From the NCBI GenBank assembly GCA_964291405.2, contig OZ219926.1, forward strand, positions 288,001-352,000: 64,000 nucleotides of DNA. Reading direction: 5' to 3'. Below are positions 1,393 to 45,385 of the stretch, piece after piece. The translations under genes were made by a program, and so were the position numbers. Source of the DNA: Thermodesulfobacteriota bacterium (GTDB lineage Bacteria > Desulfobacterota > Binatia > Bin18). Under the pieces are notes generated by a model. It ran no database searches. It was not told the origin of the DNA and was given only the letters and a program-made list of their open reading frames with translations. Each line of letters starts with the position of its first letter. Within the stretch, counting starts at the first letter, position 1.

Positions 1393-2568
1393 ATGGATAT
1401 TCCTGATCAAGCAGATAGCCTTCTCAAAGCCGTACATGACCTCGCTCCCCAGGTCCGTTCGCTCAGTCATCAGATCGAAACCCAGCGTCGCCTTCCCCAG
1501 TCTCTTGTTGATGCTATGGCTGCCGCAGGCCTCTTTCGTCTGCTCATTCCTCGCTCGCTTGGCGGTCTTGAGATTGATGTCTCTACATTCATCCAGATTA
1601 TTGAGGCAGCCGCAGCCTTGGACGGGTCAGTCGGCTGGTCAGCCATGATCGGTGCAACAGGAGGGCTGACGAGCGGCTATCTTCCGCTGGAAACTGCTCG
1701 GGAGATCTATGGCAGCGATCCTCATATCATCACTGCCGGGTCCCTTGCTCCACACGGTAAGGCCAGACTAGTCGAGGGAGGCTATCACGTTACAGGACGT
1801 TGGCCTTTTAACAGTGGTTGTGAATATTGCGCCTGGCTCATGGGCAACTGCATTATCCATGAGGCTGATGAATCTCCCCATCTGCGTTCCGACGGACAGC
1901 CAGATATTCGTCTGATGCTCTTTCCTTCGGCGGAAGCCGAGATCATCGACACGTGGTCAGTCTCCGGCCTGCGAGGAAGCGGCAGTCATGACATCGCGAT
2001 CCATGACCTCTTTATTCCTGCAGAGAGAACCGTAGCATATGGCCTTGAGCCTCCTACGCAGCCTGGTCCGCTCTATGCCTTCCCCACCTTTGGCCTATTG
2101 GCAATCAGTGTTGCCAGCGTAGCCGTAGGCATGGCTCGAGGCGGTATTGATTGTCTTATGGAAGTTGCACGCACCAAGATTCCAACCGGAGGGCGTCGCC
2201 CGCTCTGCGAACGCCCATTCATCCACATGCAGGTGGCACAGGCCAGAGCGCGGCTCCAGGCAGCCCGCGCTGGACTCTTTGCGATAGCCCAAGAGATATG
2301 GGATATGGCGTGTCAGAAAGAAGCAATTCCCCTCGAGCAGCGGGCGGCTATCCGTCTTGCAGCCAACCACGCCACCAGCGAGTCAGCCGCAGTGGTAGAT
2401 AGCATGTATACGGTCGCGGGGACCAGTGCCATCTGGGACACGAGTCCGCTCCAGCGGGCTTTCCGCGACATCCACGTGCTGACCCAACACGCGGTCATCG
2501 CGCCACCCCTGTATGAACTTGCCGGTCGGGTATTGTTTGGCCTCAGAACCGATACGTCGATGCTATAG
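1393..2568 (+). CDS. Acyl-CoA dehydrogenase-fold flavin-dependent monooxygenase (group D, HsaA/IacA-like) oxygenase subunit
   Basis: Motifs AGLFRLLIPRSLGG, GRWPFNSGC, DTWSVSGLRGSGSHD and LQRAFRDIH. Confidence 0.85.
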   Translation: MDIPDQADSLLKAVHDLAPQVRSLSHQIETQRRLPQSLVDAMAAAGLFRLLIPRSLGGLEIDVSTFIQIIEAAAALDGSVGWSAMIGATGGLTSGYLPLETAREIYGSDPHIITAGSLAPHGKARLVEGGYHVTGRWPFNSGCEYCAWLMGNCIIHEADESPHLRSDGQPDIRLMLFPSAEAEIIDTWSVSGLRGSGSHDIAIHDLFIPAERTVAYGLEPPTQPGPLYAFPTFGLLAISVASVAVGMARGGIDCLMEVARTKIPTGGRRPLCERPFIHMQVAQARARLQAARAGLFAIAQEIWDMACQKEAIPLEQRAAIRLAANHATSESAAVVDSMYTVAGTSAIWDTSPLQRAFRDIHVLTQHAVIAPPLYELAGRVLFGLRTDTSML

Positions 2569-2597
2569 CCATCCGGCCACTTTCCTCTTCTCGTATG

Positions 2598-5405
2598 TCA
2601 GGGAACGACTTTTTTGAGCAACTGGAGGCTGACCTGAGGGTCGTGGTACGGGCCGCTGACCTGAAACGGCAGTGCCGTGAGTCGGTCGGTACTCTGGGCG
2701 AGCAGCTTGCCCGCCAACGGGACCTTTTCAACAACACTCGTAATCCCACGCAGTGGAATCACATCGGTTGTGATATCAAGCATTTTCTGCCGTAAGTCCA
2801 CTTGGCCTCGCGCGTCCAGGCGAACGGCCTCTCCGATGAGAGAAAGATTCTCTGTGGTGAGTTCCCCGTGTTTCACAACAATATCTCCAGTCAGCGAAGA
2901 AAAGGGGAGTCCTTCGCGGGGCAACTGCGGCAACGAAAAGCTGAGAAGACTTTGCAGACTGATGGCGGTCCAGAGCCGAACGAGAATCGGGAGTTGCTGA
3001 GCAATCCCATCTTTAACTGAGAGCGTCAATTCACCATCCCATTCCTCTGGGTCATCCCAGAACTCCCAATTGACAACCTCGATGTCGCCGCTGGCATCTA
3101 AGATGCCTGAGAGGGTATCGGTCGGATGGCCAAGAGCCGCAAAAAAATCTGCCGCCTCAACCTGGCTTACCTGCGGTGCGAACGAGAGTGCGGACGAGTC
3201 AAGCCAAAACGTCCCTTCTCCCCGAATATGGCCTGCTGAGACACCAGCTTCTTCGAGGCGAAAATCGACCTGACGATCATGCCGGTCAACAAAGGCCCGG
3301 ACCGGTGCCGCGCTCAATGTCTTATACCGCACCCGGTCGCAGTGGACATCGACACGTACCTTGTTCTGTTCTGCTGTCTCTCTCTTCTCCGGTTGAACGG
3401 CATCAGGGATCAAGATCGAGTCGAAATCCAGCTCGCCACATTCCAGGCTGACGCGCAACTCCAGGGGCTCAAAGCTCAGCAACTCACCCGAGCCCGCCAC
3501 ACTCCCGCCGGGCAGGCTGGCCTGCTCAATGACAAATCGGCCCTGCTGTCCCTGCCAGGAGAATTGTCCGCGCGCGATATCGAGCGGCTCAAGAAACGAC
3601 AGCACGTCCACACGGGCTTGGCTCAGCGCAATCCTCCCCTCGGTCTCCAGGCTGTGACGTTGCGGACCAAACCGGGCAACCAGACTGCCGCTGAGCTGTC
3701 CAGACTGCAGGTCAACCACAGTCTCGTCAAGCAGCGGAACAAAATCCTGGACGGTCGCCTGCGGGATGGACAGGGCAACACGTCCCTGCTGTGAGGCAGT
3801 AAAGGGCCGCTCGATCGTTCCCTCCAGGGACCCGACCGAGGTCCCTACACGAAAACGGATATCCTGTAGCCTTGCCTCCTCCGGCGTGAGATGCACGGTC
3901 CCGTTCACCTCGGACAGGGTCAGCCCCCACTCGGGAAGGGCCATGCCGGCGGAACGCCATTCCAGCGTCGCGGCGTACGAGAGCTGGGTGCTCCTGCCAG
4001 GGGGAAGTTGCGCGCGCAGCCGAAGGTCAGCCTGCCCTGACGGCTGGTGCACTGCTGGCAGGAACGCCTCCCGTTCTTTGCGTGAAACGAATGAGAGCAA
4101 AGAGTCTAGGTCATCGGCGAGATCTATCTGCGCGGCGAGTCTGACTCCGAGCGTTGGCGACTCTTTTGAGAACAGAGGTCCCCAGTCAACACTCAACTCC
4201 GTGAGCACCGAGGATCGTCCGTACGAGCCCCCCAGTTTCGAGGCGTGCAGTTGACCGTCCTGCAAACGAAGTTGTCCCGAGGTCAGACGAGCCGGGAGAC
4301 CATTCTTCACAAACCGGCCCTCCACCTCTTCAAGCGTGGCGTTGAAGATGAGCGAGGCTGAATTTTCAGCCAAATTTTCGAGCAGCCCAGCGACCGGCGC
4401 GACCACTACCCATGAGGAAGCGTAAGGCGGATTCTCCCAGCGCAAGTCTGTCAGGTCGATGCTGCCACGCTCAATCGTCAGGGGTGAAAGACGGGCCTCT
4501 CGTACGCTTATTCGACCCGAGACGGTCGTACTCGCGTTCGCCCTTCCGGTATACTTCCCCGAGAAGTCTGCACGAGCCGAGGGCCAATCTACCCCAAACC
4601 ATGTACCCAACTCCTGGACGGCAACATTCTGGAGGCGAATGTCGCCTCGCCATTCTGCTGGAGACGCGTTCGGTGTCGTCTCCCAGTATGGAGAGTGAGA
4701 ACGGAGCGTCAGTTGTCCAACATCTCCATTCCTACCCAAGTCCGCGCTCAACTCTCCCCATACACCACCTATATCCCAAGCAATCCGTAGCCGCGCACGA
4801 GTGAAGATCACGGGAACTCCGGTAGATATTTGCCGAAAGACAAGCGTCGCATCTTCCAGGACAAGTTGGTGGACCGACAGTTGTGGGGAAAACCAGAGAT
4901 TGGCATCAGACGGAGTTTCCTCAGCCTCGGCTTCTTGGATAAACGGATTCACCTGATGAGAGAACAGGCGCGCAACCGGAGCGGTCGATTCAGCATTCGA
5001 TATCGGTCGCGCGAGCTGGACGCTCGGCTTCAGGAAGAAAATATGACGAAAGAGCAGTTGCCCGCGTAAGAGCGCCTTAAGATCAAGCACGAGATCAATG
5101 CGTTCGGCAGTCATCAATGGATCGGTACCGCCATACGCCTGCACACGGACCGTCTTGAACTGAACCCCCACCCCCTGTCGAAAGGAGAGCGTACTCGATG
5201 CAATCTCCACTTCTGCGCGCAAGAACTCTTCCAGTTCTTGTTCAAGGAAGGCAACATAGCGCTGTTCGGACAAGAACCAGCCGGCGAGAAGAAGCCCCAC
5301 CAGGACGCCACTCAATCCAAGGACAACCAAGCCCAGAGTCAGTCGCCGCAGGTAGCGAAATATTCGGGGTCGCTGTTCTTCCGTTTCCGTCTCAGATCGG
5401 GTCAT
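2598..5405 (-). CDS. AsmA-like / YhdP-family bridge-like lipid transfer protein
   Basis: N-terminal TM anchor, long beta-rich body and AsmA_2-type C-terminus (GLPFSSLTGD...VEKVPLAGKLL...FQVSGPYHDPQV). Confidence 0.85.
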   Translation of the reverse strand: MTRSETETEEQRPRIFRYLRRLTLGLVVLGLSGVLVGLLLAGWFLSEQRYVAFLEQELEEFLRAEVEIASSTLSFRQGVGVQFKTVRVQAYGGTDPLMTAERIDLVLDLKALLRGQLLFRHIFFLKPSVQLARPISNAESTAPVARLFSHQVNPFIQEAEAEETPSDANLWFSPQLSVHQLVLEDATLVFRQISTGVPVIFTRARLRIAWDIGGVWGELSADLGRNGDVGQLTLRSHSPYWETTPNASPAEWRGDIRLQNVAVQELGTWFGVDWPSARADFSGKYTGRANASTTVSGRISVREARLSPLTIERGSIDLTDLRWENPPYASSWVVVAPVAGLLENLAENSASLIFNATLEEVEGRFVKNGLPARLTSGQLRLQDGQLHASKLGGSYGRSSVLTELSVDWGPLFSKESPTLGVRLAAQIDLADDLDSLLSFVSRKEREAFLPAVHQPSGQADLRLRAQLPPGRSTQLSYAATLEWRSAGMALPEWGLTLSEVNGTVHLTPEEARLQDIRFRVGTSVGSLEGTIERPFTASQQGRVALSIPQATVQDFVPLLDETVVDLQSGQLSGSLVARFGPQRHSLETEGRIALSQARVDVLSFLEPLDIARGQFSWQGQQGRFVIEQASLPGGSVAGSGELLSFEPLELRVSLECGELDFDSILIPDAVQPEKRETAEQNKVRVDVHCDRVRYKTLSAAPVRAFVDRHDRQVDFRLEEAGVSAGHIRGEGTFWLDSSALSFAPQVSQVEAADFFAALGHPTDTLSGILDASGDIEVVNWEFWDDPEEWDGELTLSVKDGIAQQLPILVRLWTAISLQSLLSFSLPQLPREGLPFSSLTGDIVVKHGELTTENLSLIGEAVRLDARGQVDLRQKMLDITTDVIPLRGITSVVEKVPLAGKLLAQSTDRLTALPFQVSGPYHDPQVSLQLLKKVVP

Positions 5406-38696: not shown

Positions 38697-39531
38697 ATCA
38701 AATGCGCCCCCTATTATTTTATTGGAGATAAAAGCTTAGGGGTTGTAACTATTTTTCTTATGCCGTGAGCATGATCCTCTTTAAATGGATTTTTCTCACA
38801 CCATTCATGTAAAGAGTTAATATTTAATAGCTGACAGCTTTGACTAACATTCCAGGTCACTTGGAGAGGAGAACATGTTTGTTCAGTATACTTTGGCCCT
38901 GTGGTGGAGCCTAAAAACTCTAGAGCGTCACTACGGTCGGGTAGCTGTTTAACTTGATGAAATCCATCTTTAGAAGTAGTCACTGTATAGCGAGAAAAAC
39001 TTGGTGCTTCGTTGTCATTAACTAATAAAAACACCTTGGTCTCAACTCTTAGCTGTGGATTTGCACATGATTCTGAAGAACATGCCTGAAGGCCTTCTCC
39101 TGGTTTAACATCACAGCTTGAGTATACCCAGTGAATTTCTATGGTATCCCCGGGTACAACGTTTTTACAGAATTGATTAGATGCAGGAGCCTCTAGCTGT
39201 GAAGAGGTCAAGGATTGAGTTTCGTTACATTTCCACCCCCCAGCACCATTTCTCTCCGCTGGTAGTGAAAAACCAGATGCTTTGTGTTCAGCATGTTTAT
39301 GAAAGTGGATGTTACACAAATTTAACTGCTTATGGTTGGGAGAAAGGTTAAATTTGACTGGATTTTTGCCTTCTCTTTCAGTTAAATCCCGTGGCGTTTG
39401 TGGACCAAAGTTTTGGCAAATTTCAGCATTTAATACGCCTGAGAATAGCACTGAAAAAATAGTTAATACGGATAGCTTATACATACAGTAATTCCTTTTA
39501 TTTAATTTCTAGTGAGGCAAATGCATTTGAT
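38697..39531. repeat. 9-bp inverted repeat ATCAAATGC / GCATTTGAT bounding the AT-rich segment
   Basis: ATCAAATGC at 38697-38705 and GCATTTGAT at 39523-39531, at the compositional boundaries. Confidence 0.5.
38714..39484 (-). CDS. Secreted delta-class carbonic anhydrase-like protein; AT-rich, probably horizontally acquired
   Basis: GPQTPRD, NLCNIHFH..AEHK, PGDTIEIHWVYSSC, CANPQLRVE, GSTTGP, CSPLQVTW and EDHAHGIR; signal peptide; visibly lower GC than the flanks. Confidence 0.85.
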   Translation of the reverse strand: MYKLSVLTIFSVLFSGVLNAEICQNFGPQTPRDLTEREGKNPVKFNLSPNHKQLNLCNIHFHKHAEHKASGFSLPAERNGAGGWKCNETQSLTSSQLEAPASNQFCKNVVPGDTIEIHWVYSSCDVKPGEGLQACSSESCANPQLRVETKVFLLVNDNEAPSFSRYTVTTSKDGFHQVKQLPDRSDALEFLGSTTGPKYTEQTCSPLQVTWNVSQSCQLLNINSLHEWCEKNPFKEDHAHGIRKIVTTPKLLSPIK

Positions 39532-40183: not shown

Positions 40184-40414
40184 TCAGTCTTCAATAATAG
40201 CGCTCAACGACGTCCGCCAGCCGGACATGGCAAAGCGTTGCTCCAGGCCGTACCGCTTGATTTCGTCGAGTCCGGGCATACGCGTGACCTTCCAGCCCTC
40301 GCATTTCGCCGAGCTACACGGACAGGGGTCCGTCATTGCGTCGAGCAGCGCCGTCGGCATATCCAACCCTTTTGCCAAACGGGCGACAAATTCTTCTTTT
40401 GAAATATGAGCCAT
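40184..40414 (-). CDS. Small hypothetical protein with CPCxxxxCxGW motif
   Basis: Co-directional and tightly packed between its neighbours; DPCPCSSAKCEGW. Confidence 0.65.
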   Translation of the reverse strand: MAHISKEEFVARLAKGLDMPTALLDAMTDPCPCSSAKCEGWKVTRMPGLDEIKRYGLEQRFAMSGWRTSLSAIIED

Positions 40415-40422
40415 ATCCAACG

Positions 40423-40536
40423 CTAGGCGTTTCTCTTTCCTTCTGAAACCGCAATCACAATAACGGCGATGATCACGCCGAGGGCCGCGCCAACAAGAAT
40501 CGGACTGTCTGAAAAGAACTCATACAGCGCGCCCAT
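40423..40536 (-). CDS. 37-aa single-TM small protein (not in ORF track)
   Basis: RBS GGTGGAG, then MGALYEFFSDSPILVGAALGVIIAVIVIAVSEGKRNA-TAG; exactly fills the gap between two genes. Confidence 0.75.
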   Translation of the reverse strand: MGALYEFFSDSPILVGAALGVIIAVIVIAVSEGKRNA

Positions 40537-40546
40537 GGTACTCCAC

Positions 40547-41584
40547 CTAGCCAGAATGCCCCTGCTGCAATTCTGCCCGGACCAGCCAAGCCCCATCGGC
40601 AAGGGCCTGCATCTTTCCTCGCGCTGCGGTGCGCGAGCGCGGAATCATACCACAGTCCGTACAGGGATAGAGATGCTCAGGCGCCACATACTGCAACGCT
40701 GTCCGAATACGCGCCGCAACCGTTTCACGCGTTTCCACCTCTTCGGTGCCAACGTCAATAACCCCGACCATCAAATCTTTGCCCTTGGCCTCGGCTAACA
40801 CTGCCGGATTGACGCCAGAGGCGGCACACTCGACTGAGATCATATCAATCGCGCTGGTCCGCAGCAGCGGCAGCGTACGCGCATAATGGCCCCAGTCCGT
40901 GTTCTGGCTCTTCCACTCAACGACCGCAGGGATACCGTATCCATAACAGATATGGACTGCAGTTTTAGCCTGCACCCCTTGAGCGCACTGTTCGAGCGTC
41001 TGGATGCCCCACTCTTCCACCGCATCGAGATAGATATTGAAACACGGCTCGTCGAACTGCACGATATCACACCCGTTCTCTGCCAGCTCACACGCCTCTT
41101 CATTTACCAGCCGCGCCAGTTCGGTCGCCAGCTTCCGGCGCTCCCCGTAGTACTCATCCGCAACCGTATCCGCGATGGTCATCGGACCGGGCAAGGTGAC
41201 TTTGACCGGCTTTGTCGTGTGCTGCTTCATAAAACGAAGCGCCTCAACCAACACCGACCGTGGACGACGCAACTGCTCGACCACCCGGGCGGCCCGGACT
41301 TTGATGCCGTAGCGGTTCCCTCGCGTTTCGATCTCAACCAAACGGCTGAAGTCCAACCCGGTCAGCCCTTCAACGAACCCCCAGATATAATGCCGACGCC
41401 GCTGTTCGCCGTCGGTCACGATATTGAGACCCGCCGCGTCCTGGTCAGCAAGCGCGAGCAGCACAGCATCGTCCTGGCCCTCACTCAGCATATCATCTTG
41501 CAGCTTCCACGAGACATACATGGCGTTCGGGGGAACGAGCCAGGTTGGACGGGGTAAGCTCCCGACAATCATGGTTTGCAGCAT
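40547..41584 (-). CDS. Core (MetE C-terminal-only) cobalamin-independent methionine synthase-like protein, MesD-like
   Basis: VGSLPRP.WL, DGEQRR, LPGPMT, QFDEP, zinc ligands HICYGYG / SVEC / PCTDCG; no N-terminal folate-binding barrel. Confidence 0.85.
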   Translation of the reverse strand: MLQTMIVGSLPRPTWLVPPNAMYVSWKLQDDMLSEGQDDAVLLALADQDAAGLNIVTDGEQRRRHYIWGFVEGLTGLDFSRLVEIETRGNRYGIKVRAARVVEQLRRPRSVLVEALRFMKQHTTKPVKVTLPGPMTIADTVADEYYGERRKLATELARLVNEEACELAENGCDIVQFDEPCFNIYLDAVEEWGIQTLEQCAQGVQAKTAVHICYGYGIPAVVEWKSQNTDWGHYARTLPLLRTSAIDMISVECAASGVNPAVLAEAKGKDLMVGVIDVGTEEVETRETVAARIRTALQYVAPEHLYPCTDCGMIPRSRTAARGKMQALADGAWLVRAELQQGHSG

Positions 41585-42628
41585 CTATAGTTCCTGTTCT
41601 CTGTACCAGCCGAGGGCCTTCATCACCGGCGCGTCAGAAAAAGAGAAAAGAACTGCGTCTACGGACGCCGAGGTATTCTCATGCGCATGACTCGCCCAAG
41701 TTGGGACAGCAAACACATCGCCCGGCCCCCATTCAAGGGTCCTGCCGTTGACAACTGTCTGCCCAGTCCCCTCAACCGTAAGATAGACCTTACTTATACT
41801 TTGCCTACGCGCCTGCGTTTTCTGGCCGGGTCGGAGGCGCTGCAGGAAGCTGGCCATGGTCGCGAGCGACGGGCCGCCTGTTACCGGATTCACATATTCC
41901 AGCGTGGTGCCGTCAAATGGACTGTCAGCGTCTCTGCCGAGGTCTAGCAGCGCGGGGCGTGCCTCGCTCCACGCATATTTGAGTAAAGACGACTGCCCAT
42001 CAGATGGGCGTTGCCAGGTTGGCAGGAGTCCGCCGCGTTTATAGCCGCGCGTTGAGCTATCCTCCGGCTTGGTCAAGTCTTGCGACTCGGTCCGACCGGG
42101 TTCAAAAAATGTTCCGGCCAGCATGCCGGCCAAGGGCAGGTCCAGTCCGTCGAGCCAGACAACGGGTTCCGTGCCTTCACTGCCGTGCTCATGCCACGTC
42201 CAGTTCGGGGTTAAGACAAAATCCCCCGGCTCCATAGGCAGCTTTTCACCATCGACGACCGTATAGGCCCCCTGTCCTTCCATGATGAAACGGAGTGCGT
42301 TGGGTGTGTGCCGGTGGGTTCGCGCGACCTCACCGGGCAGGATGAGCTGAATCCCGGCATACAACGTGTGGGTTGTGGCAACCCGACCTTCGAGCCCTGG
42401 GTTGAGCAGCATGAGCACCCGCCGTTCGGCTTCGGCTGCGGAGACGAGTTCGCCTGAGCGCAGGAGTTGGGGACGCAGGTCTTTCCAGCGCCACAGATAC
42501 GGCTTGACCGGTGTTTCCGGTGTAGGTGTGAGCTGTTTACCAAGCACCTTCCATAGCGGCCCGACATCGTACTGAGACAGACCGGTCAGAAAGGTCTCTA
42601 CTTCGTGCGATTGGGTTGGTTGCGCCAT
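41585..42628 (-). CDS. Gentisate 1,2-dioxygenase-family bicupin
   Basis: AERRVL.L.NPG, LYAGIQLILPGE.A..HRH, TPNWTWHEH, WLDGLD.P, YVNPVTGG and FSFSDAP. Confidence 0.88.
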   Translation of the reverse strand: MAQPTQSHEVETFLTGLSQYDVGPLWKVLGKQLTPTPETPVKPYLWRWKDLRPQLLRSGELVSAAEAERRVLMLLNPGLEGRVATTHTLYAGIQLILPGEVARTHRHTPNALRFIMEGQGAYTVVDGEKLPMEPGDFVLTPNWTWHEHGSEGTEPVVWLDGLDLPLAGMLAGTFFEPGRTESQDLTKPEDSSTRGYKRGGLLPTWQRPSDGQSSLLKYAWSEARPALLDLGRDADSPFDGTTLEYVNPVTGGPSLATMASFLQRLRPGQKTQARRQSISKVYLTVEGTGQTVVNGRTLEWGPGDVFAVPTWASHAHENTSASVDAVLFSFSDAPVMKALGWYREQEL

Positions 42629-42658
42629 AGTGTTGTGCTCAGTTCTCAGCGGTGTCTT

Positions 42659-43018
42659 TTAGTCGGGCGCGGCGATCTCCTCGCACAGCATGACCTGGAA
42701 ATTCAGACCGGCGTATTTTTCATCAGGACCGTGTACGGACCAGCGCTGCGTCCAGCCCTGGGCAAATTTCTGGAGTTCCTCATTCCCCCAGACTTTCTCC
42801 CAGGCTTCCAGATCGTTGATCTCAAGCAGGTCATAGTGCGTAAACTGCACCGTCCCCAGTTTTTCATCCAGCACTTTCCAATTCGCATAGCGCTTGACAC
42901 CTGGAACGCTGTTGAAAAACGGATTATCCACGTCACGGAGCCACTGCTCGTACTCCGCATGATTAACGTGTTCCCCAAGGGTATAGGTCAATAGCAGCAT
43001 TGCTCTGCGTGTGGTCAT
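42659..43018 (-). CDS. RedY/HapK-like (EthD-fold) small protein
   Basis: Y.L...V...EYEQWLR.VD.P..NS.PGV..Y...HYDLLEI dimeric alpha/beta barrel pattern. Confidence 0.6.
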   Translation of the reverse strand: MTTRRAMLLLTYTLGEHVNHAEYEQWLRDVDNPFFNSVPGVKRYANWKVLDEKLGTVQFTHYDLLEINDLEAWEKVWGNEELQKFAQGWTQRWSVHGPDEKYAGLNFQVMLCEEIAAPD

Positions 43019-43042
43019 TTCAAAAGCCTCGTATCAGGCCAG

Positions 43043-43072
43043 ACCATACCGCACCCAGAAGCGTAACGTCAA
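43043..43072 (-). promoter_or_regulatory. Sigma70-type promoter for the RedY-like/dioxygenase/MesD-like operon
   Basis: TTGACG-18 bp-TATGGT on the minus strand. Confidence 0.45.
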
Positions 43073-43119
43073 CGAGGAAGGTATAAGTTGTCGGGGCATA
43101 GCATGCCATATTGGGCGAG

Positions 43120-44016
43120 CTATGCCGCTGGTGGCAGGAGGGCACTCACACTGCTCTGGCGGAGTCGCTCAAAAATAAGCTGGGTCGCTCGGGAGCGATT
43201 CAGGGTGTAGAAGTGAATGCCGGGCGCGCCACCGGCGAGCAGGGCTTCACACTGCTGCCACGCCCAGTCAACCCCGATTTCAAACACCGCGTCACTCTCC
43301 TCAGCGACCGGCTCCAAGCGTTCTTGCAGCGCGAGCGGAATGGATGCCCCGCACATCCGGGTGAAGCGGACGATCTGACGGTAGTTCAGAATGGGCATGA
43401 TGCCAGGAATAATGCGCTGCCGAACCCCAAGCTGTCTCGCCAGCGCCACAAAGTCGAAATAGTCCTGTGCGTCGAAAAACAACTGGGTGGTCACAAAATC
43501 GGCCCCACAGTCCACCTTTGCCTTGAGATGCTGCAAGTCCTGAAGCGCATCCATACTTTCCGGGTGCGCCTCGGGATAGCCCGCAACCCCAATACAAAAG
43601 TCTCCGCTGCGGCGGGCCAGGGCAACCAACTCGGCGGCGTGCGCAAAACCGTTCGGGGCCGGGGTAAACGCGGTTTCGCCGCGGGGCGGGTCACCACGCA
43701 GACACATGAGGTTCTCGACACCACGGTCTTTCAGCTCAAACAGAATATCTCTGAGTTCTGTTTGGCTGTGACCCACACAGGTCAGGTGGGCCATACCGAT
43801 GAGCCCCAGTTCGGCTTGGAAACGACACACCAGATCGATGGTATTCTTTCGTGTCGAACCCCCGGCCCCGTAGGTCACAGAGCAAAAACTGGCCCCCAAC
43901 TTCTGGAGTTCGCGGGCTCGATCAAAGAGCGCCTCTCCATCTTCTGCTGTCTTTGGGGGAAAAAATTCAAACGAAAACGTCTGCGGGTGAGAATCAAAGA
44001 GTCTTCGGATTTTCAT
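43120..44016 (-). CDS. metF: 5,10-methylenetetrahydrofolate reductase
   Basis: SFEFFPPK, SVTYGAGG, AHLTC, LRGDPP, AGYPE.H, TQLFF and HFYTLN. Confidence 0.96.
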   Translation of the reverse strand: MKIRRLFDSHPQTFSFEFFPPKTAEDGEALFDRARELQKLGASFCSVTYGAGGSTRKNTIDLVCRFQAELGLIGMAHLTCVGHSQTELRDILFELKDRGVENLMCLRGDPPRGETAFTPAPNGFAHAAELVALARRSGDFCIGVAGYPEAHPESMDALQDLQHLKAKVDCGADFVTTQLFFDAQDYFDFVALARQLGVRQRIIPGIMPILNYRQIVRFTRMCGASIPLALQERLEPVAEESDAVFEIGVDWAWQQCEALLAGGAPGIHFYTLNRSRATQLIFERLRQSSVSALLPPAA

Positions 44017-44072
44017 GTTCTCCAAGCTGTATTTTCCACCTTTGAGATAAAACTTTTAGTGAGTCATTCGCT

Positions 44073-44101
44073 ATGCTACCAAGCAGCCTGAAACGAGTCA
44101 A
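44073..44101 (-). promoter_or_regulatory. Sigma70-type promoter of metF
   Basis: TTGACT-17 bp-TAGCAT with extended -10 TG. Confidence 0.6.
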
Positions 44102-44197
44102 AGCCGGTCTGCGTCAGGCGTTCTGCCGTTTCACCTTTACAACCCGATCTTTCCCAGTATACGATTCAGCGCGCGTACGGAAAGCAAAGGAGGACTT

Positions 44198-45385
44198 ATG
44201 TACCCGCTGAAAGACCAAGCCTGTATCGTCGGCGTGGGCGAGACCGCTTATACCCGGGGATCGGGGAAAACCGATCTCGTGCTGATGCTCGAAGCCTCAA
44301 TGCACGCCCTGAGCGATGCGGGTCTGAGTCCGCATGACATCGACGGCATTATCCCCCCCCCGCTGCCGTCAACCTCTGAACATTTTGCCGCCAACCTTGG
44401 AGTCGAGGACCTGCGCTATGCGGTCACGGTACACATGGGCGGGGCCAGTCCGGTCACTTCGCTCCAAAGCGCGGCCATGGCAGTTGCCTGCGGGGTAGCG
44501 AAAAATGTCCTCGTGCCGCTGGGCTGGAACGGCTACTCCACGATGCGTGTCCGCGACATGGGCAATAAGAGTAAAGGCAACGGCGGTGGGGGCAGCGGGG
44601 CACCCGGCGCCCTGGCCAACACGATTGGCGAATACTATCTGCCCTATGGGGCCAACGTTCCGGTACAGTGGTACGCTTGGCTCGCCACCCGCCATAAAGA
44701 ACTGTACGGCACCCCGGACGAGGCCATGGGCACCGTGGCGGTCACCTCACGCAAGCATGCCCAACTGAACGATAAAGCCTATATGCAGGGCCGCCCGCTC
44801 AGCATGGAGGACTATCTGAACGCCCGCTGGGTGTCCAAACCCTTTCGGCTGTTTGACTGTTGTCTGGAAACGGATGGGGCTGCCGCAGTGGTCGTGACCT
44901 CGCCGGAACGGGCTCGCGATCTCAAACACGACCCGGTGTATATTTCGGGTATTGCCGAAGGCCACCCCTACCCTGCGGATGACATTCCTGCCCGGCCTGA
45001 TCCGTTTACGATCGGGCTCAGCTTTGCCACGCCAAATGCGCTGCAAATGGCTGAGGTCGATCTCAAAGACCTCGACTTTGCCGAAATCTACGACTGTTTT
45101 ACCTACGTCGTGCTGCTCCAGATGGAAGCGCTCGGGTTGTGCAAACGGGGAGAGGTTGGTGAGTACGCGCGGGGGGACAGATTTACGCTGGACGGCGAAC
45201 TGCCCTTGAATACCCATGGCGGCCTGCATTCCGAAGCGCATGTGTGGGGCATGAATCATATTGTAGAAGCCACCCATCAACTCCGTCATGAAGCCGGTGA
45301 GCGTCAAGTCAAAGACGCCCAACTCGGTCTGGTTACGGGCTGGGGAGATTTTGGTGACGGAAGTCTGGCAATTATGCGCCGATAA
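44198..45385 (+). CDS. Thiolase-like protein (SCP2/Ltp2-type, probable aldolase)
   Basis: Lacks the catalytic Cys (MGGAS); has [12 protein letters not shown] and NTHGG.HSEAH. Confidence 0.88.

Follow-up and report, generated by a model that had tools for sequence, protein, structure and literature searches.

What does a MesD-like methionine synthase do where its known partner, MesX, is missing and a gene for a ring-cleaving dioxygenase stands in the partner's place? This question is raised by four genes in a 64,000-nucleotide stretch of DNA (G000:C3:288001-352000; 'the window' refers to this whole stretch) from an uncultured marine bacterium, whose 4.95 Mb genome is 97.5% complete and whose closest public relatives (93-99% protein identity) are Candidatus Binatia metagenome-assembled genomes (MAGs). 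The minus strand carries, in head-to-tail order, metF (43120-44015 from its ATG; the open reading frame (ORF) list starts it at a TTG at 44025), encoding methylenetetrahydrofolate reductase (MTHFR) and opening the module; P0003 (42659-43018), for a 119-aa protein that is probably a RedY/HapK/EthD-like alpha+beta barrel; P0002 (41585-42628), for a 347-aa Fe(II) bicupin of the gentisate/salicylate 1,2-dioxygenase family; and P0001 (40547-41584), for a 345-aa MesD-like 'core' MetE-family zinc enzyme. MesD and MesX together form an oxygen-dependent, folate- and B12-independent core methionine synthase, in which MesD needs O2 and a partner protein and neither MetF nor cobalamin (Price, Deutschbauer and Arkin 2021, PMC7857596). 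In that paper the methyl donor and the reason for the oxygen requirement were not resolved, and we found no later paper that resolves either. We find that the bicupin/MesD-like pairing is real and conserved and is not canonical MesD. At a rough probability of 40%, we further propose that metF-(P0003)-bicupin-MesD-like is an O2-dependent, B12- and MesX-independent homocysteine-methylating (alkylating) module, in which the dioxygenase replaces MesX.

Judged from its sequence, P0001 is a MetE-family zinc enzyme with a single domain that comes from the MesD lineage, in a sister clade of canonical MesD; it is a predicted homocysteine S-methyl(alkyl)transferase. Its only Pfam domain is PF01717 (residues 4-330 of 345); a match to Meth_synt_1 stays sub-threshold, and the folate-binding N-terminal domain is absent. 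The protein is a fringe member of NCBIfam NF006589 'methionine synthase', with 412.1 bits against a cut-off of 392, compared with 392.7 for a 73% identical paralogue in the same genome and 706 for the canonical MesD of Rahnella, which has a DUF1852-annotated neighbour directly upstream; NF006589 is in effect a MesD model. On the other NCBIfam 'methionine synthase' models P0001 falls far under all cut-offs. Its best solved structure (343 bits, phmmer) is PDB 3RPD from Shewanella, cited as a MesD structure by Price and colleagues (PMC7857596). In tblastn comparisons with MesX-linked MesD from plasmid records, identity was 47.8-49.7% (295-304 bits), with 48.2% and 297 bits for the MesX-linked MesD of Acinetobacter baumannii, and all 454 matching records were less than 60% identical to P0001. 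The working thresholds of Price and colleagues for MesD of the ACIAD3523 type are at least 390 bits in BLASTp (about 55% identity) or at least 560 bits in phmmer (PMC7857596); P0001 lies under them, the comparison being with MesX-linked relatives rather than with ACIAD3523 itself.

The residues expected of a methionine synthase are nonetheless in place. In MetE, Ser433, Glu484 and Asp599 bind homocysteine, and His641, Cys643, Glu665 and Cys726 bind zinc (PMC7857596). Their counterparts in P0001 are S9, E60 and D178 for homocysteine and H211, C213, E252 and C311 for zinc, all of them invariant in a 25-sequence alignment reaching down to 33% identity. Placement in a tree agrees with the scores. 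The tree (IQ-TREE quick search; supports from the Shimodaira-Hasegawa-like approximate likelihood ratio test, SH-aLRT, only) held 100 rows, namely 79 of the 80 genome loci described below (L073 was left aside), the query, its own paralogue, three MesX-linked proteins and 16 distant representatives, and was rooted, imperfectly, on the long-branched distant representatives. The three MesX-linked proteins and one representative, P0128, group together (support 95) beside an 82-row group that holds P0001 and all its relatives (support 89), and the two groups are joined with support 96. The initial annotation had named the protein MesD-like while counting a position nested within canonical MesD against its own reading; P0001 falls instead in the sister group, at 48-50% identity, and is thus of the MesD lineage without being canonical MesD.

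The product of P0002 looks like a ring-cleaving dioxygenase for a gentisate-like 2-hydroxybenzoate. Pfam finds two Cupin_2 stretches, and the best PDB relatives are the gentisate/salicylate 1,2-dioxygenases 2D40 from E. coli O157 (310.7 bits), 3BU7 from Silicibacter (285.7 bits) and 2PHD, a salicylate dioxygenase (216 bits). Like these enzymes, P0002 is a bicupin with an HxH...H iron site in the N-terminal cupin and with aligned Arg, Gln, Arg, His and Asp residues: H105, H107, H146, H148, R69, Q94, R113 and D160, invariant among 18 bicupin orthologues, align to H119, H121, H160, H162, R83, Q108, R127 and D174 of 2PHD, which we take to be the residues that bind iron or are required for catalysis. 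Their intactness suggests a working enzyme. Unlike gentisate 1,2-dioxygenase proper, P0002 scores under the TIGR02272 cut-off (361.5 versus 442.1 bits), forms an orthologue group of its own and is not clustered with a maleylpyruvate isomerase or fumarylpyruvate hydrolase. No other close member of the family occurs in the genome. The initial annotation had observed that neither of the two follow-up enzymes is encoded in the window, and profile searches agree: FAA_hydrolase (PF01557) has seven matches in the genome, none of them in the window and the nearest more than 100 kb away, and a maiA-like glutathione S-transferase (GST) has 31, none over the cut-off, none in the window and the nearest likewise more than 100 kb away. 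An FAA-hydrolase gene (C3:4431537) and a GST gene (C3:4433592) about 1.4 kb apart could be a fumaryl/maleyl-type pair.

The bicupin and MesD-like genes are joined without a gap. The junction reads GAA CTA TAG ATG CTG, the bicupin stop (41587-41585) abutting the P0001 start (41584), so that the gene set and the direct abutment of TAG and ATG described earlier are borne out by ORFs, translations and a reading of the junction; the P0003-bicupin gap is 30 bp and the metF-P0003 gap 101 bp. Centred on the MesD-like gene, 80 genome loci were compared. In 39 of them a bicupin gene lies within 400 bp, mostly at a distance of 0-12 nt: with metF and P0003 in 20 loci, with metF in 14, and alone or cut by a contig edge in five. 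Four further loci end at a 5' contig edge and are not assessable; the rest have an alpha/beta hydrolase and/or luciferase-like monooxygenase context (18 loci), a NIPSNAP and/or two-CoA-transferase context (5) or other neighbours (14). Bicupin-linked rows spread over deep branches of the 82-row tree group; loci of the hydrolase context fall into a single derived clade, and those of the NIPSNAP context into another. In two of the 39 loci, both from Dehalococcoidia (L085 and L086), the bicupin and MesD-like genes are divergent and still adjacent. The second of these, a MAG, carries at L086:1123-7044 an alpha/beta hydrolase, a luciferase-like monooxygenase, a second, 436-aa MetE-like gene, the divergent bicupin and the MesD-like gene, a cluster that joins two contexts separate in the window's genome.

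Seen from the bicupin, the linkage is stricter. A metagenome scan with the bicupin alignment returned 80 contigs, which were screened with a degenerate DNA motif and a few ORF and Pfam checks. Six of them carry bicupins 68-72% identical to P0002, and in all six a MesD-like gene follows: five have the QFDEP motif just downstream, and the sixth, L107, breaks off after 119 codons of a Meth_synt_2 ORF. The motif was found in none of the 74 contigs with 44-57% identical bicupins, many of which are short; it recovers all 80 genome loci and all three canonical mesD genes and is therefore a fair probe. The orthologous group, at 68% identity or more, is thus always followed by a MesD-like gene (39 genome loci and 6/6 assessable metagenome contigs). 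Orthologues occur in 25 of 27 genomes of the genus and 32 of 36 of the family. The two congeners G265 and G370, both 100% complete, have neither the bicupin nor any P0001 relative above 37% identity, and this type of metF is absent as well; they keep MetH and a divergent MTHFR scoring 133 and 130 bits on PF02219, against 309-314. A bicupin search over 201 genomes of the phylum found only the window's own genome, which says little, the sample holding one congener. The initial annotation would have set its reading aside had the cupin linkage been confined to this genome; it is kept across genomes and phyla and was lost together in two complete congeners. A literature search turned up no description of the bicupin/MesD-like pairing.

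Gene fusions bear on the canonical pair. P0277 and P0278 are natural MesX-MesD fusions (PF08908 plus PF01717; 680 and 691 aa), a Rosetta-stone link for that pair. Unlike in the canonical case, no bicupin-MesD fusion occurs among the seven long relatives listed (605-2000 aa, E up to 1e-30). One fusion candidate, P0283 (alpha/beta hydrolase plus Meth_synt_2), was rejected: it has long Arg/Ala-rich stretches and looks like a frameshifted merge of neighbouring genes.

Upstream, metF adds a link to one-carbon metabolism. Its product scores 315 bits on PF02219 and 318.1 on TIGR00676 (cut-off 293.7), and the gene lies at most 2.6 kb upstream in 34 of the 39 cupin-linked loci and also on the metagenome contigs L104 and L107. 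On contig L105, metF is replaced by a 643-aa fusion of a homocysteine S-methyltransferase domain (S-methyl_trans) with MTHFR (1897-3828), which immediately precedes the bicupin and MesD-like ORFs; these two overlap, by 4 nt. That a non-orthologous gene has taken the place of metF with a homocysteine/methyl-folate function maintained speaks for a functional link to methionine metabolism. The data suggest that metF belongs to the conserved module. P0003 is less constant, being present in 20 of the 39 cupin-linked loci and limited to the module's closest relatives. The RedY/EthD-like label given to it initially is plausible, resting on a weak match to HapK (E 0.02; 15.8 bits, cut-off 25) and on a language-model atlas lead of 0.94 to HapK/EthD clusters; a low-confidence model (predicted local distance difference test, pLDDT, 61) has a beta-alpha-beta-beta-alpha-beta order compatible with such a barrel. 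Small alpha+beta-barrel-type proteins recur beside MesD-lineage genes: an antibiotic biosynthesis monooxygenase (ABM) near mesX-mesD on a Rahnella plasmid (L093:3400-3735), and NIPSNAP directly upstream of the MesD-like gene in three loci, for example at L040:5589-5939. ABM monooxygenase, NIPSNAP and the HapK/EthD-like P0003 presumably belong to the same clan.

The methionine equipment of the genome resembles that of organisms that use MesD and MesX, with MesX taken away. PF08908 has no match anywhere in the 97.5% complete genome, and a MesX protein query likewise found nothing; as a positive control, the three plasmid records that carry mesX all matched, at 581-632 bits. MesX was also absent from all five other genomes holding P0001 relatives, and a search over 151 genomes of one class, which serves neither as control nor as a distribution, gave none over the cut-off. 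MetH is present, in a 1184-aa frame. No gene for the MetE N-terminal domain, and hence no full MetE, was found in the genome; nor was CbiC, a marker of corrin synthesis, for which control searches matched in six known producers. Around eight further Meth_synt_2 paralogues, 28-33% identical to P0001, lie under every NCBIfam cut-off; the exception is the 73.5% identical copy at C3:2000392-2001411, with its NF006589 score just over the line. These genome-wide searches for DUF1852, metH and metE, proposed with the initial annotation, thus extend to the whole genome the absence of MesX that had been noted in the window, and place MetH in it. Hosts of MesD/MesX have MetH and are B12-auxotrophic (PMC7857596), and the present host resembles them in appearing B12-auxotrophic.

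The paralogue has surroundings of its own. At C3:2000392-2001411 (L091:7345-8412, minus strand) it is followed by an alpha/beta hydrolase gene and faces genes for a luciferase-like monooxygenase and a short-chain dehydrogenase/reductase; nearby are a TrpB-like pyridoxal-phosphate enzyme, a triple RidA protein, an old-yellow-enzyme-type flavoprotein and a reductive-dehalogenase-like Fe-S protein. This context is kept in 18 of the 80 loci, which form one clade.

Set beside the canonical system, the module shares a single-domain MetE-C-terminal protein that passes NF006589 and keeps the zinc and homocysteine residues, a partner gene of about 330-350 aa directly upstream, a MetH-positive host lacking the corrin marker, and a partner expected to use O2. 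DUF1852 is directly upstream of mesD in all three canonical loci inspected; here the bicupin holds that position, and at 347 aa it is of the size of MesX (327-350 aa). The differences are a 48-50% identical sister group in place of MesD itself, the absence of MesX with a bicupin as the upstream partner, and an MTHFR gene in the module, whereas MesD/MesX is independent of MetF. MesX is a well-conserved protein, 65-83% identical across Actinobacteria and Proteobacteria. The idea that MesX is itself a hidden cupin was tried and dropped: a BLASTP comparison of MesX with P0002 returned E 0.61; a 20-sequence MesX alignment, set against that of the bicupin in hhalign, reached a probability of 0.25%; and for an AlphaFold2 model of MesX (pLDDT 74; predicted template-modelling score 0.77) Foldseek gave no match at E up to 0.001. 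No sequence relative of MesX was found in the PDB, and a wide structural search returned weak GNAT-like rows only, the best (Z 4.5, root-mean-square deviation 4.6 over 152 residues) being within the range of chance. MesX is therefore no help in reading the bicupin, which, if it does the job of MesX, would be a non-homologous replacement.

How could a ring-cleaving dioxygenase serve a methionine synthase? P0001 would alkylate homocysteine, most likely methylating it to methionine. The bicupin would use O2 to convert a gentisate-like compound into the source of the methyl group, and P0001 would take that group from the product and turn homocysteine into methionine; P0003 would play an accessory part, and just in the closest relatives. 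In a concrete version, the substrate may be a methoxylated salicylate, with an aryl methyl ether that is inert until ring cleavage would make a (vinylogous) methyl ester of it. With 5-methoxy-2-hydroxybenzoate, for example, gentisate-type cleavage would yield an enol, in conjugation with a 2-oxo acid, that still bears the methoxy group, and the zinc-thiolate could then demethylate the resulting ester-type methyl group. A related route is known from syringate catabolism, where 3-O-methylgallate is cleaved to the methyl ester CHMOD and alpha/beta hydrolases free methanol; that pathway employs the methylesterases DesC/DesD and MgaC, and LigM/DesA plus MetF for methyl-tetrahydrofolate (methyl-THF) (PMC12314914). 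Common to that pathway and our proposal are a ring-cleaving dioxygenase, the passage from an aryl methyl ether to an ester-type methyl (here a suggestion), and alpha/beta hydrolase and MTHFR genes alongside. The syringate pathway differs in that its dioxygenases are LigB-type and not cupins, its methyl groups go to methanol or, through GcvT-family enzymes, to tetrahydrofolate, and no MetE-family enzyme is known in it.

The aryl-ether scheme would also suit the paralogue, with its alpha/beta hydrolase and flavin monooxygenase neighbours, and the cluster of mixed content in Dehalococcoidia. Taken further, the MesD lineage as a whole might consist of 'oxygenase-coupled' homocysteine methyltransferases, each with a lineage-specific, O2-using partner that turns an inert methyl group into an ester-type or vinylogous ester-type one for the zinc-thiolate of homocysteine to take. 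The partners would be MesX in Proteobacteria and Actinobacteria, the bicupin here and possibly the luciferase-like monooxygenase for the paralogue. The bicupin of this sponge-associated lineage would cleave a methoxylated salicylate or gentisate, with the methyl group entering methionine directly, free of folate and B12. We hold this generalization to be improbable, at about half the weight that we give to the module itself.

Several observations speak against the dioxygenase-for-MesX proposal. MesX and the bicupin appear to lack homology by BLASTP, profile and predicted fold, as far as these can test it. MesD/MesX functions in E. coli on glucose (PMC7857596). The full constellation of gentisate/salicylate dioxygenase residues indicates that P0002 probably needs an aromatic substrate, and central metabolism does not obviously supply one. 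SAM (S-adenosylmethionine) and B12 riboswitches were sought with Rfam and none was found. MetH occurs in 57 of 61 relatives, so that the module is never the sole candidate synthase. The metF linkage may in part be inherited gene order, since flanking thiolase-like, OB-fold and acyl-CoA-dehydrogenase genes are common to many metF-linked lineages. The dependence is also asymmetric: the bicupin was never found without the MesD-like gene, and the MesD-like gene without the bicupin is common, close relatives of P0001 (68-78% identity) standing beside an alpha/beta hydrolase and a luciferase-like monooxygenase, beside NIPSNAP and CoA-transferases, or in other company. Moreover, in G373 (L022:5150-6000) the bicupin is a pseudogene, in which an in-frame 228-nt deletion has taken out approximately codons 56-131 (76 codons), and with them the HxH motif and two of the three iron ligands, in addition to a 1-nt insertion with frameshift and many substitutions. 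Its P0003 and MesD-like genes are intact, the latter at 94% identity, and an intact MesD-like gene beside a dead bicupin implies that the enzyme can persist without this partner.

These points lead to the rival that survives best, in which P0001 is an autonomous methionine synthase, drawing on 5-methyl-THF from the adjacent MTHFR or on another small donor, and the bicupin is a separate gentisate-type dioxygenase held alongside by operon history. The G373 locus and the bicupin-less paralogues fit this view, as do the MTHFR gene, or a homocysteine-methyltransferase/MTHFR fusion, upstream in nearly all loci, the retention of every gentisate-dioxygenase residue by the bicupin, and the distant FAA-hydrolase/GST gene pair, which could process maleylpyruvate. 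Several points speak against this rival, which we hold to be unlikely: the stop and start codons abut or overlap, the orthologous bicupin was never seen without the MesD-like gene in 39 genome loci and six of six assessable contigs, the adjacency outlasts a rearrangement in Dehalococcoidia, and both genes are jointly absent from two complete congeners. Furthermore, P0001 has no folate-binding N-domain, and canonical MesD is independent of MetF (PMC7857596).

A second rival, also raised in the initial annotation, turns the relation around and makes the pair part of an undescribed aromatic ring-cleavage pathway, in which the zinc enzyme and a thiol (homocysteine or cysteine) would isomerise the dioxygenase product, by a maleylpyruvate-like cis-trans step, or add to it to form a thioether. 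There are precedents for both halves: epoxyalkane:coenzyme M transferase is a MetE-family zinc-thiolate enzyme attacking an oxygenase product, and thiol-dependent maleylpyruvate isomerases use thiols on the product of gentisate ring cleavage. Such a role would suit the intact gentisate-dioxygenase active site, the lack of a known maleylpyruvate isomerase or hydrolase in the window and of any maiA match over the cut-off in the genome, the catabolic-looking company of the pair in L086 (luciferase-like monooxygenase, alpha/beta hydrolase and second MetE-like gene) and of the 73% paralogue, and a bicupin that always has the MesD-like gene while the reverse does not hold. We nevertheless rate it the least likely of the readings, as the conserved module contains no aromatic-pathway hydroxylase, transporter, regulator or hydrolase, its upstream MTHFR or fusion points to methionine and one-carbon metabolism, and P0001, presumably unlike the transferase and isomerases just named, retains without variation the triad that grips homocysteine by its amino-acid end, as true methionine synthases do. 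Of the two candidate mechanisms put forward initially, the methionine-related one fits better, given the invariant homocysteine- and zinc-binding residues, the MTHFR upstream in two non-orthologous forms and the lack of MetE and CbiC. A prediction of the P0001-P0002 complex from alignments of both proteins scored 0.00 and speaks neither for nor against binding.

On the minus strand, consensus scans give a sigma-70-like match 5' of P0003 (43043-43072; TTGACG-18-TATGGT, 9/12) and another 5' of metF (44073-44101; TTGACT-17-TAGCAT with a TG, 9/12). The initial annotation had a single promoter driving P0003, bicupin and P0001, with metF adjacent under its own promoter; the first of these cannot be shown from consensus matches, and for metF the site is present, the data suggesting that the gene is a member of the module. 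No terminator-like site was found in the metF-P0003 interval, and a weak one lies 3' of P0001. RNA-library contigs from sponges (three studies) cover parts of all four genes and span both junctions that flank the bicupin gene, with P0003 and with P0001; in a 91% alike relative such contigs extend from the bicupin across P0003 into metF. Such contigs are blind to strand, level and single transcripts, and their uncovered parts carry no meaning; they are compatible with expression and co-transcription and prove neither. Rfam gave no riboswitch or RNA family in the window at gathering thresholds, nor at E up to 1 in 40300-44400.

Downstream of the module, a 37-codon ORF for a hydrophobic peptide (40423-40536, minus strand) starts 11 nt past the P0001 stop, and the terminator-like hairpin falls within it; a 78-codon ORF (40184-40420, minus strand) follows, both lying between P0001 and P0005. 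P0005 (39629-40153, minus strand; 174 aa) has no Pfam or NCBIfam match and is kept 3' of the module in many related loci. Two genes downstream of the module lies a secreted-looking delta-class carbonic anhydrase (38714-39484, minus strand; PF10563, 202 bits), kept in at least 11 related loci, and alpha/beta hydrolases stand two to four genes 3' of the module in the window.

What the module offers is a natural experiment, in which a near relative of MesD lives without MesX and is tightly linked to a well-understood chemistry, the Fe(II)-dependent oxygenolytic ring cleavage of 2-hydroxybenzoates. We favour the still unproven view that it is a core methionine synthase of the MesD lineage that works with another oxygen-using partner and is linked to a folate reductase. 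Its setting is a B12-auxotrophic host, and module DNA recurs in sponge and coral metagenomes: 14 runs contain at least half of the sampled words, seven of them labelled sponge and one coral. If the two enzymes do not cooperate, the automatic annotation 'methionine synthase' for this clade, which rests on a score just over a cut-off, would be corrected. If they do, the module would be a third type of route to methionine that needs oxygen but no B12 or, alternatively, would supply the SAM cycle with methyl groups salvaged from methoxylated aromatics. The pair would then be the first tractable entry to the methyl-donor chemistry of MesD, since the kind of substrate that gentisate dioxygenases take is well understood, and its conserved pairing may help to locate the source of the methyl group for the MesD family.

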